Assembly (NCBI RefSeq): GCF_003790525.1
Contig: NZ_CP033635.1
Strand: one strand, 5' to 3'
Origin: Escherichia coli
GTDB taxonomy: Bacteria; Pseudomonadota; Gammaproteobacteria; Enterobacterales; Enterobacteriaceae
DNA: 64,000 bases
Shown: piece after piece, positions 32,431 through 48,120 of the stretch
Numbering within the stretch: position 1 is the first letter of the stretch
Layout of the letters: every line of letters starts with the position of its first letter
The notes under the pieces: generated by a model
Databases searched by the model: none
Told to the model about the DNA's origin: nothing
Seen by the model: only the letters and a program-made list of their open reading frames with translations
Position numbers and translations under genes: made by a program

Positions 32431-34581
32431 TTAACGCCGCCGACGGCGTGGGGATTTCGTTTTTTCTTTCTTTTTAACTATACCTTCAGGGACTTCCGGT
32501 TGCTCTATCGGAAATACCGGTAATGCATCCAGTAGCCGCTTGCCGTAGTTTTTGGTGAGCAAGCGTTTATCGTAAATCACCACTTCGCCCCAGCAACCGT
32601 GGCTTCGAATCAGTCGCCCAACCTGCTGAATCAGGTTAAACGAGGCGCTCGGCAGGCTTTGCACCTCAAACGGATAGCGGTTGAGGCTTTTCAGCCATTC
32701 CCCTTCGGTGATCACCACGGGGCTGTCGATGGGCGGAAAAGCGATTTTGTGGATATGCACCTGGCTGAGCAGATCGCCTTTCAGATCAAGCCCTTCGGCA
32801 AATGACTGTAAGCCCACCAGCACGCTGCGCTCACCGTTGGCGACGCGTTTGCGGTGCAGTTCAACTAAACGGTAACGCGGCTGATCGCCCTGCACCAGCA
32901 ACATCAGACGTAAATCCGTCACATAGTCGAGAAAGCGCTGCATCGCCCGTCCGCTGGCAAACAGTACCAACATACCGAGATGTTTTTTGCTCTCCACCTG
33001 CTTACGGAAAAAGGCCGCCATTTCGGCAATATGCTGCTCTTCGTTGTCGAGGGAAGGCTCAACGCGCATCCGGGGAATAACAATTTTGCCCTGTTCGCAG
33101 TGGTTAAAGGGGGAATCCAGCGCCACAAAACGGTCGCCCGCTTTCTCTTTCAGCCCACTCATCTCCTGCAAACGCGAAAAACTGTTCAGCGAACGCAAGG
33201 TTGCGGAGGTAACAATAATGTGCGGAATACTGCGCCACAGCAGCCTTTCCAGTTGGTCGCTAACACGAATACCCACACAGTGAAACCAGAGATGCAGCTG
33301 CCCTTCGCGCTCTTCCCGCGTCGCCCATTTGGTCACCGGCGCACCGGAAGATTGCGCCAGAGACGCCAGCCGCCAGAGTTTGCTTTGCGCCTCGAACATC
33401 CCCAACGCGCGGTTCATCTGCAAAATCAACCGATGCAGGCGTACAATGTCATGGCTGCCGGTTTTCTCACTTAAATCGTTAAGAAATAACTCCGCCAGGC
33501 CACGCAGCATCTCGGTGAGTTTTGCCAGCCGCTGGCAGATCTCCAGTACTTCATCAGGCAGTTCGCCCATCGCAAAACGGTGCTCTGCCTCCTGCCCGGC
33601 AGGCATGTAGAGGTTGAGAATGTTGTTTAACGAGGCGATAAGCTCATACAACTCTTCACAATGGGCATTCAAACGTTCAGGGATCGCCAGCGGCGGGATG
33701 GTCTTCGGGCGAAACTGCTCCATGCAGGTAGCGACCAGTTTCGTGAACAAGTCCAGCTGTAGCCGATACCACGGTGCGGTGATTTCTGCACTCATCTCCA
33801 GCGCATCCCGCGCCACATCCGGCAGGTGATGACCTTCGTCCAGCACCAGCAGTAAATTTTTCGGGTCAGGCAATACGGCTTCGCTTTCCATCGCCGCCAT
33901 CACCAGCGCATGGTTTGCCACCACCACTTCCGCTTCCTGAATCTCCCGACGAGCGACAAAAAACGGGCATTCGCGATAGTAATAACAGTTGCGGTTAAGG
34001 CAACTGGCCTTGTCGGTGCTCAAACGACGCCAGAGATCGTCATCTATAGCGATATCAGTATGATCACGCAGACCATCCCATTTATAAGTGTCGAGATCGC
34101 CCTTCAGCTTCGCACAACGTTTTTGTTCTTCCTGATTGTTCGGCGTCAGTTCGTCGTCAAGAAACGCCAGCAAATCCTGTTGCGTGGGTTCAGTGCTGGC
34201 GAGCGCCGTCAGATTACGCGGACAAACGTAGCGCCCACGCCCAAAAGCGGCAGTGAATTTAAGATCGGGAATGATCTTTTTCAGCAGCGGTAAATCTTTA
34301 CTGTAGATCTGATCCTGCAATGCCACGTTGGCGGTACTCACCACCAGCGTTTTTTGCTCTTCGCGGGCAATGGCGATGCCAGGGATCAAATAGGAGAGCG
34401 TTTTCCCAACGCCAGTGGGGGCTTCAATCGCCAGATGCCGCCCTTCTTCTCCGGCCAGCGTTTTGGCGACGTCCGCAATCATCTGCCGCTGCGGCGCACG
34501 GGGAATAAAGTCGGGGATCTGTTCCTGAAGCGCCTTATACCAGGCGGCAATTTGCGCTTTAAGCGCGGCGGTTAATGCCAT
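32431..34581 (-). CDS. dinG: ATP-dependent DNA helicase DinG
   Basis: 716-aa ORF matching DinG; Fe-S helicase motifs. Confidence 0.95.
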   Translation of the reverse strand: MALTAALKAQIAAWYKALQEQIPDFIPRAPQRQMIADVAKTLAGEEGRHLAIEAPTGVGKTLSYLIPGIAIAREEQKTLVVSTANVALQDQIYSKDLPLLKKIIPDLKFTAAFGRGRYVCPRNLTALASTEPTQQDLLAFLDDELTPNNQEEQKRCAKLKGDLDTYKWDGLRDHTDIAIDDDLWRRLSTDKASCLNRNCYYYRECPFFVARREIQEAEVVVANHALVMAAMESEAVLPDPKNLLLVLDEGHHLPDVARDALEMSAEITAPWYRLQLDLFTKLVATCMEQFRPKTIPPLAIPERLNAHCEELYELIASLNNILNLYMPAGQEAEHRFAMGELPDEVLEICQRLAKLTEMLRGLAELFLNDLSEKTGSHDIVRLHRLILQMNRALGMFEAQSKLWRLASLAQSSGAPVTKWATREEREGQLHLWFHCVGIRVSDQLERLLWRSIPHIIVTSATLRSLNSFSRLQEMSGLKEKAGDRFVALDSPFNHCEQGKIVIPRMRVEPSLDNEEQHIAEMAAFFRKQVESKKHLGMLVLFASGRAMQRFLDYVTDLRLMLLVQGDQPRYRLVELHRKRVANGERSVLVGLQSFAEGLDLKGDLLSQVHIHKIAFPPIDSPVVITEGEWLKSLNRYPFEVQSLPSASFNLIQQVGRLIRSHGCWGEVVIYDKRLLTKNYGKRLLDALPVFPIEQPEVPEGIVKKKEKTKSPRRRRR

Positions 34582-34593
34582 GAGAAAACCTGA

Positions 34594-34613
34594 AATACTG
34601 TATAAACAGCCAA
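34594..34613 (-). promoter_or_regulatory. LexA box of dinG
   Basis: Minus-strand sequence TATTGGCTGTTTATACAGTATTT (CTGT-N8-ACAG) just upstream of the dinG start. Confidence 0.8.
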
Positions 34614-34751
34614 TATTGTGGCATTTTTCGGTTTTCAGGGGTAATGGTTTTTCTGTTTCTGGAAAGCGGCTCGCAATAACGTTTTCTGGCTGTGGGGTTT
34701 TCTCGCAACAGAAGAAACATCATTGCGTAGTAAAAGACAATGCACGCAGGC

Positions 34752-35033
34752 TTATTGCGCTGGTGGCCATTGCAGGGCGGTATGTAAAACACGCAGTACC
34801 GAGAGCGTATCGCCCTCCACTTGGTAGATCAGCACATAATGCGGCCTGACAACGGCTTCATGTGTACCAGCGACTCGTCCGGCCCGGTACATCTCCGGGC
34901 GTTCACAGGCCTGTTCCGCAATGGCTTCAAATTGATTATCAAGGGCTATTGCCGCTAGCGGATTATCTTTACTGATGTATTCCATGATTTGCTCCCTGTC
35001 AGACAGGGACATTGGCTTCCATTCCAGACGCAT
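34752..35033 (-). CDS. RelE/ParE-family type II toxin
   Basis: 93-aa ORF with the ParE-like pattern (...RPHYVLIYQVEGDTLSVLRVLHTA...). Confidence 0.7.
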   Translation of the reverse strand: MRLEWKPMSLSDREQIMEYISKDNPLAAIALDNQFEAIAEQACERPEMYRAGRVAGTHEAVVRPHYVLIYQVEGDTLSVLRVLHTALQWPPAQ

Positions 35034-35473
35034 TAATCCCCCTTCAGCAAGGCTTTTTTACGGGCAGCAAATAGACTTTTGGCCTCTTCATGAGAGAGCG
35101 CCGGGCGTGGATCGTCAATGGCGGCCTGTACCTGTTCACGAAACCAGGCGTCATACGCGGCAGCTTCATGAGCTCGTTTTAATGCCTCTGCCCTGTCTGG
35201 TCGGGTCGTTTTCTTCTGACCGTCCGGGTCGTAATGAGAGGCGTCGACTTCAAACCGGGCAATACCAACATCTTTCAGGTAGTTGACAACCGTTTCCAGC
35301 CGTTTAAACAAGCGAATTTGCCGACTGCGTTGTGCTGCAAGAGGCCGTTCAGTGTGGCCGTATTTCACGGTCAACGACCAGCCTCCCTGGGTGCCAATAA
35401 CGTGTGCTGCATCCACTACGCCAGATTCAACCAGTTTATGTAAGGTTGAGTGATCGATCGTTTCTGGTGCCAT
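35033..35473 (-). CDS. putative cognate antitoxin (146 aa, family uncertain)
   Basis: Immediately upstream of the ParE-like ORF, overlapping by 1 nt; the C-terminal region is helical and charged as in ParD/RHH-type antitoxins, while the N-terminal half is unrecognised. Confidence 0.5.
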   Translation of the reverse strand: MAPETIDHSTLHKLVESGVVDAAHVIGTQGGWSLTVKYGHTERPLAAQRSRQIRLFKRLETVVNYLKDVGIARFEVDASHYDPDGQKKTTRPDRAEALKRAHEAAAYDAWFREQVQAAIDDPRPALSHEEAKSLFAARKKALLKGD

Positions 35474-35629
35474 AATGCGCTAACCTCTTTGTATACGGCA
35501 TGCAATTTATAATTAAAGATAGCGCAATTAATAATAAATTGCAGCACCTTAATCGTAAATTGCCCAGGATAAAATTGCGGTAGAAAGAGATTTGTTGCGA
35601 ATATGCCGGGCATCGCCCGGCATAAAAGA

Positions 35630-36994
35630 TTACTGCGCAGCGGCAGGTTTACGCGGACGGCGACGGCGTTGTTGTTCGCCTGCCGGTTTGGCATCACCAA
35701 GACGACGAGATGTTTTTTCTGCGGGCTTCGCGCTAGCTGATTTCGCACCACCTTCTCCACGGCGTGGTTGCTGTTGACCGCGACCACCACCTTGCCCACG
35801 ACCGCCGCCGCCACGTTGCTGGCGACCGTTCTGGATCGGTTCGGCTTTGATTGACGGGTCCGGCTCATAACCCGGAATCGCAATGCGCGGGATCTCTTTT
35901 TTCAGCAGTTTTTCGATATCACGCAGCAGTTTGTGTTCATCAACACACACCAGCGACAACGCTTCACCGGTAGCAGCCGCACGACCGGTACGCCCGATAC
36001 GGTGGACATAATCTTCCGGTACGTTTGGCAGTTCATAGTTGACCACGTGCGGCAGCTCTTCAATATCCAGGCCGCGCGCAGCGATGTCAGTTGCCACCAG
36101 TACACGAATATCGCCCGATTTAAAATCAGCCAGCGCACGGGTACGCGCACCTTGCGATTTATTGCCGTGGATCGCCGCACTGCGGATGCCATCTTTATTA
36201 AGCTGTTCAGCCAGATGGTTAGCGCCATGTTTGGTACGGGTAAACACCAGCACCTGCTGCCAGTTCCCTTTCCCAATCATATGCGACAGCAATTCGCGTT
36301 TGCGTTTCTTATCGACAAAGTGAACGTGCTGGGTCACCTGATCAGACGCAGTATTGCGGCGTGCCACTTCGATTTCCAGCGGGTTGTGCAACAGTTTTTC
36401 CGCCAGGGCTTTAATATCGTCAGAGAAGGTCGCGGAGAACAACAGGTTCTGGCGCTTCGCTGGCAGTTTTGTTAACACGCGACGGATATCGTGGATAAAG
36501 CCCATGTCGAGCATGCGGTCAGCTTCATCAAGGACGAGGATTTCAACCTGATCCAGCTTCACTGCATTTTGATGTTCCAGGTCCAGCAGACGTCCCGGCG
36601 TTGCCACCAGCACATCAACGCCGCCGCGCAACTTCATCATTTGTGGGTTAATGCTGACACCGCCAAACACCACCAGCGAACGAATGTTCAGGTATTTGCT
36701 GTAATCACGGACGTTTTCGCCAATCTGCGCCGCCAGTTCACGGGTCGGGGTAAGAATGAGCGCACGTACCGGACGACGCCCTTTGGCGTGCGGCTGGCGA
36801 GTGATCAGGTGTTGCAACAGCGGCAGCGTAAAGCCCGCTGTTTTGCCGGTGCCGGTCTGGGCGCTGGCCATCAGGTCGCGGCCTTCCAACACCGCAGGGA
36901 TCGCCTGCTGCTGAATAGGGGTGGGTTCACGGTAACCCTGCTCGGCAACGGCGCGCAGGATATCAGGGCTTAAACCCAAAGAATCGAAAGACAT
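35630..36994 (-). CDS. rhlE: ATP-dependent RNA helicase RhlE
   Basis: 454-aa DEAD-box ORF ([15 protein letters not shown]) with a basic C-terminal tail; matches RhlE. Confidence 0.95.
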
Positions 36995-46359: not shown

Positions 46360-47073
46360 CTAATGAAAAAACCGCGTATGCCTTTGCCAGACAAGCGTTA
46401 TAGCTATAGCGGCAAGAATCCCAAAGAAGCCGATAAAATAGTAATAGAGTGTTAATGCACCTATAAAAGCACAACGAACCGGACTCCATAATTCTTCACT
46501 ATGGCATTTTCCTGCCAGTTCAAGGAGCTTATTTCGTCCATGCGAGATAATGCCTGACCATAAGACAATCATTAAGCAACTTATTACCCAAATGGGTCGT
46601 TCACTCATTAATGTGGCATTCACGATGATTACCAGGGCCAACCCTGTCAACGTCATCATAATGGTAAAACGGTGAGAGCCAGGATCAACATTGAATAATA
46701 AACCAGCCAGCATACTGATAAAAAACATCGCGCCCGCTGTGCTGAATACGACGATAATGGCAGATACAGGCGCTAAACTCGCAACGACAATCGCCACCAA
46801 AGAGATTAAAAACAAATATATTACGCCCGCGATGGCGGTATTTATCTTGTTGATATCTTTACTTAAGCCATACATAGAAAGTAATAATAATCCTATAGCA
46901 ATATACATTTCCGGTGAATCATATTTTGTTGCCGTAATTTCGAGATACTTAGCGCCCCAGGCCAGCCCTGCGGTTGCCACCAAACCCAAAGCGGTAATGA
47001 GCCATATGCCGTTTAATATCCTGGCTTCGTGCTGAAAATCTAATTTATTGCTATTTTGCGAGTATGATTCCAT
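46360..47073 (-). CDS. ybhM: BAX inhibitor-1 family membrane protein YbhM
   Basis: Matches YbhM from MESYSQNSNKLDF...; the ORF-track N-terminal extension is rejected. Confidence 0.85.
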   Translation of the reverse strand: MESYSQNSNKLDFQHEARILNGIWLITALGLVATAGLAWGAKYLEITATKYDSPEMYIAIGLLLLSMYGLSKDINKINTAIAGVIYLFLISLVAIVVASLAPVSAIIVVFSTAGAMFFISMLAGLLFNVDPGSHRFTIMMTLTGLALVIIVNATLMSERPIWVISCLMIVLWSGIISHGRNKLLELAGKCHSEELWSPVRCAFIGALTLYYYFIGFFGILAAIAITLVWQRHTRFFH

Positions 47074-47279: not shown

Positions 47280-47984
47280 TTAACGGCGGTTGCCGAAGAT
47301 CCGCAGCAACATCAGGAACAGGTTGATGAAGTCCAGATACAAGGTCAACGCGCCAAGAATGGAATATTTGCGCAGGTTCGACGTGTCGCGGGTATCAATC
47401 TGCTCACCCATATTTTTCAGTTTCTGGGTGTCATACGCCGTCAATCCGACAAAGACAATCACGCCGATGTATGTGACTGCCCACATCAACGCTTCGCTTT
47501 TCAGCCAGAAGTTGACCAGCGATGCCAGCACAATGCCGATCAACGCCATAAACAGCATATTGCCGAAACCACTTAGATCGCGCTTCGTGGTGTAACCGTA
47601 CAGGCTCATTGCGCCGAACATCCCGGCAGTAACGACGAAAGTACTGGCGATAGAAGCAGCGGTATAGACAATGAAAATACTGGAAAGCGTCAGGCCAGTC
47701 AGCGCGGAATAAAGCATAAAGAGCATCGTCGTTACACCTGCGCTCAGCTTTTGAATCATCGCTGATAACACAATAACCAGAGCTAATTGTGCTATTACCA
47801 GACCAATTAAAAAGATGCGGTTGGTGAATAATAGCTCCATAACGGCCGCGGAATTAGCCGCATACCAGGCAACAAACGCAGTAAGCAGCAAGCCTACTGT
47901 CATCCAGCCATAGACCTGTGCCATATAGGTTTGCAGGCCAGTTCGGGTTTGTACGATTGAATCAGAACGTGGGAATCTGTCCAT
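47280..47984 (-). CDS. ybhL: BAX inhibitor-1 family membrane protein YbhL
   Basis: Matches YbhL from MDRFPRSDSIVQTRTGLQTYMAQ...; start at the ATG at 47984. Confidence 0.85.
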   Translation of the reverse strand: MDRFPRSDSIVQTRTGLQTYMAQVYGWMTVGLLLTAFVAWYAANSAAVMELLFTNRIFLIGLVIAQLALVIVLSAMIQKLSAGVTTMLFMLYSALTGLTLSSIFIVYTAASIASTFVVTAGMFGAMSLYGYTTKRDLSGFGNMLFMALIGIVLASLVNFWLKSEALMWAVTYIGVIVFVGLTAYDTQKLKNMGEQIDTRDTSNLRKYSILGALTLYLDFINLFLMLLRIFGNRR

Positions 47985-48120
47985 GACGATCTCCTGAAGA
48001 TATAAGGAATATCTTAAGGATACTGCAAAATGATGAGGCTGTGCATCGACGCAGCGTAAACGCATATACTGAGCGGTGAAATTGCCGGACGCAGCGGTGC
48101 CTTATCCGGCTAACAAAAAA

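Follow-up and report, generated by a model that had tools for sequence, protein, structure and literature searches.

A ParE- and PaaA2-like gene pair with a ParC-like antitoxin domain in the dinG-rhlE interval of Escherichia coli

We analysed a 64,000-nucleotide stretch of Escherichia coli DNA (contig NZ_CP033635.1 of assembly GCF_003790525.1), referred to here as the window, in which two overlapping genes lie on the minus strand between dinG and rhlE. They encode a toxin of 93 amino acids (aa) and, upstream of it, an antitoxin of 146 aa. We consider it likely that the pair is a working type II toxin-antitoxin module of the ParE/PaaA2 class, fixed in the chromosome, in which the ParC-like N-terminal domain of the antitoxin most likely binds a palindrome in the promoter of its own operon. 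In other respects the module is a chromosomal type II toxin-antitoxin pair of the usual sort. Its architecture is already in databases, as RefSeq names the pair and Pfam lists both antitoxin domains.

A gene pair in a polymorphic chromosomal interval

The stop codon of the antitoxin gene and the start codon of the toxin gene have one base in common (TAATG, in the context GAT TAATG CGT). Both open reading frames (ORFs) are annotated as coding sequences in RefSeq, where recent records name the products 'antitoxin PaaA2 family protein' and 'RelE/ParE family toxin'. They are not chance ORFs, given their family matches, their RefSeq status and the low ratio of nonsynonymous to synonymous substitution rates (dN/dS) between alleles. 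The coordinates of the genes and their features are summarized in Table 1.

Table 1. Features of the module and its flanks (positions in the window)
Feature	Position	Strand	Basis
Toxin gene, parE-type, 93 aa	34752-35033	-	ORF, ATG start
Antitoxin gene, 146 aa	35033-35473	-	ORF, ATG start
PaaA2-like toxin-neutralising region, antitoxin residues 94-146, modelled as two helices	35036-35194	-	Pfam, PDB, AlphaFold2 (AF2)
Variable linker, antitoxin residues 84-93	35195-35224	-	alignment without consensus there; predicted local distance difference test (pLDDT) <50 at residues 86-90
ParC-like domain (PF28031), antitoxin residues 1-83, putative operator-binding domain	35225-35473	-	
19-bp palindrome GCAATTTATTATTAATTGC (minus-strand reading), putative operator	35524-35542	.	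inverted repeat I9
Additional half-site, GCAATTT when read on the plus strand; distance to the half-site of the core (35524) 22 bp	35502-35508	.	repeat families D2, I1, I2
Two more AAATTGC half-sites	35557-35563 and 35572-35578	.	direct repeat family D4, spacings 21 and 15 bp
Candidate promoter: -35 CTGCAA (35539-35544), 17-nt spacer, -10 TATCTT (35516-35521)	35516-35544	-	
Cassette swapped for the K-12 ybiA segment, 922 bp	34681-35602	.	breakpoints from MAFFT and BLAST against C600
dinG, flank	32431-34581	-	
rhlE, flank	35630-36994	-	

In the K-12 derivative C600, the dinG-rhlE interval carries ybiA on the opposite strand. Comparison by BLAST and MAFFT placed the breakpoints at window positions 34680 and 35603, with 922 bp between them here versus 707 bp in K-12. 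The left breakpoint is located upstream of the LexA box of dinG (34598-34609), which is kept in the conserved flank, and the right breakpoint falls at the terminator hairpin of rhlE (35602-35624). No third gene, of paaR type or other, is present within the cassette, and we saw no flanking repeats, integrase or insertion sequence around it. Its GC content (0.46-0.55) is near the values of the flanks and is not distinctive. No YbiA-like sequence was found anywhere in the window. The replaced part of the K-12 counterpart (L002, 2290-2490) contains palindromic repeats resembling repetitive extragenic palindromic (REP) elements between ybiA and rhlE, which are not seen in the corresponding part of the window cassette (35474-35602). 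At the other end, 170 bp separate the toxin gene from dinG, which lies on the same strand (34582-34751), and the only terminator-like hairpin there is weak (34760-34744). Transcription of the cassette could thus run into the LexA-controlled dinG gene.

The cassette is present in 324 of 5,426 complete E. coli genomes, always on the chromosome, in single copy and at the dinG-rhlE site. These fall into two main allele groups, with 66 genomes at 99% identity or more to the window and 258 genomes at 95-99%. The species E. whittamii carries the cassette at the same site, adjoining rhlE, with 98% protein identity. Escherichia alleles diverge by up to about 3.5% in DNA, with synonymous differences reaching about 0.24; the antitoxins differ by 0-3 residues and the toxins by 2-4. 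For the antitoxin, dN/dS was 0.03-0.08, and for the toxin 0.07-0.16. Both ORFs were intact in all alleles inspected. The low dN/dS and the few residue changes indicate that both genes are maintained by selection.

The same interval has other occupants. Of the 5,426 complete genomes, 3,432 have the K-12-type ybiA gene. The type III effector gene espX2 is present in 542 genomes, and in strain 114 it was confirmed to lie in the dinG-rhlE interval. Strains such as LF82 carry a short 'NADAR family' gene at this place. The interval is therefore polymorphic, with at least four occupants: ybiA, espX2, the short NADAR gene and the toxin-antitoxin module. For E. coli genomics, this documents dinG-rhlE as a site with several alternative occupants.

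An earlier note on this DNA had described two overlapping minus-strand ORFs between dinG and rhlE that looked like a toxin-antitoxin islet in place of a core gene that K-12 carries as ybiA. Coordinates, strand and the one-base overlap were verified, and comparison of the interval with C600 and with E. coli genomes agreed that K-12 has ybiA at the locus and lacks the pair. Replacement is thus upheld. The word 'core' does not strictly apply to ybiA, in view of its frequency and the number of its alternatives.

Over 28 kb, the window strain differs from K-12 by a uniform 2-3%. Recent import with diverged flanks was rejected on this ground, since divergence showed no peak at the junctions of the cassette. 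Strain GF43 carries both the cassette and a dinG gene whose product is identical to K-12 DinG. The presence of the cassette in this K-12-like background means that it has been transferred from one background to another, for which homologous recombination in the flanking DNA is the presumed route.

A ParE-class toxin and the PaaA2-like tail of its antitoxin

The toxin matched the Pfam family PF05016 (ParE_toxin) with an E-value of 1.2e-13 over residues 3-86 (model positions 1-86 of 89). We also built a family profile from an alignment of 40 orthologous toxins and searched it against PDB sequences. The best match was ParE2 of the PaaA2-ParE2 complex of E. coli O157 (5cw7_B; E 2e-19, 73 bits, full length), followed by M. 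opportunistum ParE3, ParE1 of P. aeruginosa and of Caulobacter, and M. tuberculosis ParE1 (E to 8e-3). RelE, YoeB and HigB were absent from the PDB matches of the profile, and the sole other toxin class was YafQ, at E 0.93. The search with the single toxin sequence gave a weak match to ParE2 (E 1.2e-6). The C-terminal end of the toxin, HTALQWP, resembles HARRQFP of ParE2. By these sequence comparisons, the 93-aa protein belongs to the ParE class of the ParE/RelE superfamily.

Two annotations tell against this assignment. The toxin scored 38.3 bits against the NCBIfam model TIGR02385 (RelE_StbE), above its cut-off of 27.9, and several RefSeq records label it 'mRNA interferase toxin, RelE/StbE family'. 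We nevertheless regard it as very unlikely that the toxin is an mRNA interferase like RelE/StbE that depends on the ribosome, instead of a ParE-type toxin acting on DNA topology, because the significant solved relatives of the toxin profile are all ParE proteins, the partner is a PaaA2-type antitoxin, and the C-terminal end matches that of ParE2. The ParE2 toxin of O157 is nucleoid-associated and SOS-inducing (PMC8630535), and is suspected of acting on topoisomerases. By analogy, our best guess is a target linked to DNA topology.

The toxin carries one unusual residue. Codon 58 (window 34860-34862) encodes His in all Escherichia alleles, whereas 36 of the 40 family members have Arg here, within a G-T-R-E motif. 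The toxin could be attenuated by this change, and chromosomal toxin-antitoxin modules often are attenuated. On this basis, the cassette might be read as a domesticated or decaying remnant, whose toxin has been weakened (for example by R58H) and whose gene pair no longer works as an addiction or stress module. We give this little credence: both genes are under purifying selection, and neither the ORFs nor their overlap nor the putative operator is damaged in E. whittamii or in alleles that differ by about 3.5%. Furthermore, His58 is shared with two non-Escherichia members of the 40-sequence alignment. At two loci, from Pantoea (L009, 2941-3216) and Oxalobacteraceae (L039, 2949-3218), the toxin frame ends just before the near-invariant C-terminal Trp89, and these may be shortened toxins.

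The C-terminal part of the antitoxin matched the Pfam family PF21217 (PaaA2) at residues 104-130 (E 4.2e-10) and the solved PaaA2 protein (PDB 3zbe/5cw7) at residues 82-139 (E 1.9e-4), where the aligned part includes WFREQV...DDPRPA. The 'stability determinant' motif of PaaA2 (W-x-R-x-x-V ... D-P-R-P) is thus present. A RelB-family antitoxin model (NF050103, equivalog) matched residues 102-131 only and scored 47.1 bits, below its cut-off of 50. The full-length AF2 model of the antitoxin was poor (pLDDT 66); its C-terminal helices at residues 94-120 and 128-145 are as expected for a PaaA2-like tail.

Antitoxins of this architecture are common. A database search returned 895 proteins at E <= 1e-3, nearly all of 143-160 aa. 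With one genome per species scanned, 80 loci were recovered, distributed over the gamma-, beta- and alpha-proteobacteria. In 77 of the 80, the gene directly after that of the antitoxin homologue encodes a ParE homologue, and two of the three exceptions are cut short where the stored DNA ends. A Serratia plasmid copy in which the toxin gene had not been called proved to contain the toxin, again with an overlapping start. Neither protein matched the anti-phage defence systems of PADLOC. A phage origin of the module was rejected, as only PHROGs of unknown function were matched and no prophage genes lie nearby.

The ParC-like domain and the promoter palindrome

The earlier note had taken the 93-aa protein for a ParE/RelE-like toxin and the 146-aa protein for its enlarged antitoxin, perhaps with an extra domain. 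The PF05016 match and the family profile bear out the first point, and the PaaA2 motif together with the match to solved PaaA2 bears out the second. The extra domain also finds support, since the N-terminal part is a separate domain that the newest Pfam lists as PF28031, 'ParC-like'. No match spoke for a different kind of protein: the one weak hit, to a ParC family of unknown function, covers the N-terminal half only.

This N-terminal domain very likely belongs to PF28031, as judged from precomputed matches in the gene tables for a 99% identical protein (P0001) and for most homologues. A scan of the antitoxin with our Pfam copy reported no family for the N-terminal half. Residues 6-83 align with model positions 2-78 of 80 in NF041544 ('ParC family partition-associated protein') at 32.7 bits, far under the equivalog cut-off of 95 bits. 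No parA or parB gene lies near this chromosomal site. The NCBIfam and Pfam scans gave no match of the antitoxin to a ribbon-helix-helix or other known DNA-binding family.

Since the full-length model was poor, we used a model of the N-domain alone for fold searches. This AF2 model was rebuilt from a 106-sequence alignment of distant relatives and reached a pLDDT of 92 and a predicted template modelling (pTM) score of 0.80. It predicts an alpha/beta domain with a helix at residues 8-17, strands at 22-29, 31-38 and 41-46, a second helix at 59-69 and a strand at 75-77. Arg54 of the domain is near-invariant. Foldseek found nothing in the PDB at E <= 1e-3, and in AFDB50 it returned only members of the same family, mostly 'uncharacterized'. 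The sequence profile of the N-domain found no solved relative in the PDB except PaaA2, which was matched through the tail. By these searches, the domain does not have a known DNA-binding fold of antitoxins, be it ribbon-helix-helix, helix-turn-helix, AbrB or Phd/YefM.

Two plasmid proteins share the name ParC. The ParC of IncP-9 plasmid NAH7 was rejected as a relative of the N-domain (BLASTP E 1.4, no NF041544 match). The parC gene of NAH7 is dispensable (PMC12421886), which does not apply to the ParC-like domain because the two proteins are unrelated. The ParC of Myxococcus plasmid pMF1, described as a small acidic partner of ParA, was set aside, as no sequence link was found.

The region upstream of the antitoxin gene contains a perfect 6+6 inverted repeat of the form GCAATT-N7-AATTGC. 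Half-sites of the type GCAATT(T/A) or (T/A)AATTGC are abundant there, at 35502, in the core at 35524-35542, and at 35557 and 35572, with spacings of 22, 12, 21 and 15 bp. The palindrome covers the -35 element and spacer of the candidate promoter, a layout also seen in the family consensus (TTGCAA, 16-17 nt, TAnnAT). A consensus scanner proposed an alternative promoter, TTTACG-17-TATTAT, at 35559-35531. The pattern GCAAT-N9-ATTGC occurs once in the 64-kb window versus 0.24 times expected, which is not significant alone, and the operator argument therefore rests on comparison across loci.

For this comparison, the upstream regions of 79 related loci were taken together with that of the window (n = 80). 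The word TTGCAA occurs in 75% of these regions versus 6% of control segments, and ATTGC words are enriched too. The pattern GCAA-N11-TTGC was found in 51 of the 80 regions, and in 66 when one mismatch was allowed, 58-76 nt before the start codon. Other spacings (N6-N10 and N12) did not occur in the 80 regions at all. The pattern occurs 65 times in the 384 kb of DNA that the loci comprise, and 50 of these copies sit in the short upstream regions. The consensus of 44 distinct upstream sequences reads cTTGCAAtctactATtgaTTGCgta..aT, in which a -35-like TTGCAA is followed by a spacer ending with the second half-site and then by a TAnnAT -10 element. Many loci have perfect 6+6 repeats, either GCAATC-N7-GATTGC or GCAATT-N7-AATTGC.

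We found the same pattern in front of ParC-like genes that lack the PaaA2 tail. Stand-alone ParC-like relatives of about 80-90 aa occur on small and conjugative plasmids, and GCAA-N11-TTGC lies 46-73 nt upstream of four such genes (L087, L088, L101, L092). Three of these (L087, L088, L101) belong to one set of small plasmids, found in Aeromonas, E. coli, Shigella and Raoultella, and the fourth (L092) is an unrelated metagenomic contig. Upstream of distant ParC-like genes of Xanthomonas (L098, L100), a different perfect palindrome, TCAAACAT..ATGTTTGA, stands at the same position. The palindrome thus precedes some tail-less ParC-like genes, and PaaA2 of O157 has no DNA-binding domain of its own; taken together, this suggests that the ParC-like N-domain is probably the operator-binding module of the antitoxin.

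Several observations weigh against this assignment. The solved folds closest to the N-domain model are not DNA-binding proteins, the resemblance being to eL38-like folds, and the modelled fold has no DNA-binding precedent. GCAA-N11-TTGC is absent from 14 of the 80 fused loci even when a mismatch is tolerated, and the motif is missing in two of four independent stand-alone ParC-like contexts (L090, L093). Part of the conservation could be that of the promoter, since one half-site coincides with the -35 hexamer. Many of the loci are interrelated (about 25 of the 80 are from Pseudomonas), and the counts are thus not independent. In the literature we found no paper on the fused ParC-like-PaaA2 architecture or on the ParC-like domain, and no experimental work.

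These points could also be accommodated if the ParE/PaaA2 pair is real and the N-domain has a role other than DNA binding, for instance in oligomerisation, in protease targeting or in contacting a plasmid-partition or host factor, with the palindrome being just part of the promoter or a site for a different regulator. The sole named relative of the domain would fit such a role, as it is a 'partition-associated' family without assigned function, and so would the joining of the domain to other, longer C-terminal regions. We consider this explanation unlikely. The second half-site, TTGC at an invariant 11 nt, is no sigma-70 element, and with the first half-site it makes up a genuine inverted repeat, in many cases of 6+6 bp. 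The palindrome travels with the N-domain in architectures without PaaA2 and ParE. No other regulator gene is conserved beside the pair across the genomic contexts inspected, and the cassette holds nothing else. Moreover, in type II modules it is normally the antitoxin that mediates autoregulation (PMC8630535).

In our preferred reading, with the N-domain binding DNA, the two helices of antitoxin residues ~94-146 would wrap around the ParE toxin and neutralise it. Residues 1-83, probably as a dimer, would bind the 19-bp palindrome. Because the palindrome overlaps the -35 element and the spacer, the bound antitoxin would occlude the promoter and repress the operon. Loss of the antitoxin would free the toxin; PaaA2 of O157 is degraded by ClpAP and ClpXP (PMC8630535). 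With regulation built into the antitoxin, two genes would suffice for the module, as opposed to the separate repressor PaaR2 in O157.

A broader proposal stands at about even odds. In it, the ParC-like domain represents an unrecognised DNA-binding class of antitoxins and regulators reading GCAATy-N7-rATTGC, the fused protein is the complete antitoxin of ancestral type from which O157 PaaA2 arose, and the domain also regulates plasmid triplets of ParC-like, HigB and HigA genes. Such triplets were seen at two loci (L092, 332-1317; L101, 1501-2457), where a stand-alone ParC-like gene of 81-83 aa is followed by a Gp49/HigB-type toxin gene and a helix-turn-helix (HigA-type) gene. The ParC-like and toxin genes of L092 overlap, with the GCAA-N11-TTGC palindrome located upstream.

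The domain occurs in further contexts. On an Ahniella plasmid (L099, 1522-2598), an annotated hypothetical protein of 358 aa has the ParC-like match at its N-terminal end, and the match begins a few codons before the annotated start. The domain thus has fusion partners besides PaaA2. On the Xanthomonas plasmids (L098, 1489-1953; L100, 1423-2528), a distant version of the ParC-like N-domain is found in proteins of 154 aa whose tail is basic and rich in Ala, Lys and Pro, and on pXap41 an M48 metalloprotease gene comes after the gene of the 154-aa protein. In E. coli GF43 (L103, 1083-1232), a 21-bp tandem duplication (TTATTAATTGCGCTATCTTTAA) is located within the operator and -10 region. A search of the intergenic regions for RNA elements gave just one meaningless miRNA match, far under the threshold.

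Comparison with known toxin-antitoxin systems

The closest described system is paaR2-paaA2-parE2 of prophage CP-933P in E. coli O157:H7 (3zbe, 5cw7, 5cze, 5czf; PMC8630535), whose ParE2 is the closest solved relative of the toxin. As in that system, the antitoxin tail matches the toxin-binding helices of PaaA2, and the antitoxin gene is immediately upstream of the toxin gene. O157 PaaA2 lacks a DNA-binding domain, and its operon is under a separate CI-like repressor, PaaR2, in the prophage immunity region (PMC8630535). The O157 protein is short (solved chains of 52 and 71 residues), whereas the antitoxin here has 146 aa, with a ParC-like N-domain of 83 residues added. Unlike the O157 system, the window locus has no paaR gene and no prophage.

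The module also resembles classical parDE systems (RK2, Caulobacter ParDE1 (3kxe), M. opportunistum ParDE3 (5ceg) and V. cholerae ParDE2) in being a two-gene operon with a toxin-binding C-terminal part of the antitoxin and a toxin of the ParE fold. The likeness would extend to a DNA-binding N-terminal part of the antitoxin and autoregulation through an operator in the promoter. However, ParD antitoxins bind DNA by a ribbon-helix-helix, and the N-domain here is modelled as a different alpha/beta fold. The N-domain aligns with the ParC family NF041544 and very likely belongs to PF28031, yet in this protein it is fused to the tail of an antitoxin. By sequence, the module groups with PaaA2-ParE2, while its two-domain and probably autoregulated layout is that of classical parDE.

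The study of O157 PaaA2-ParE2 left open whether PaaA2 once had a DNA-binding domain that decayed (PMC8630535). A widespread two-domain relative offers a concrete candidate for this missing domain, together with a predicted operator. If true, this would give a function to the ParC-like family, whose members are frequent on Xanthomonas, Rhizobium, Aeromonas and enterobacterial plasmids, and it is the first functional hypothesis for that family.

Outside the locus, two 500-bp bins of the window (46500-46999 and 47500-47999) diverge from K-12 by 7.2-7.6%, around ybhM and ybhL by collinear alignment, and may mark an old recombination tract.

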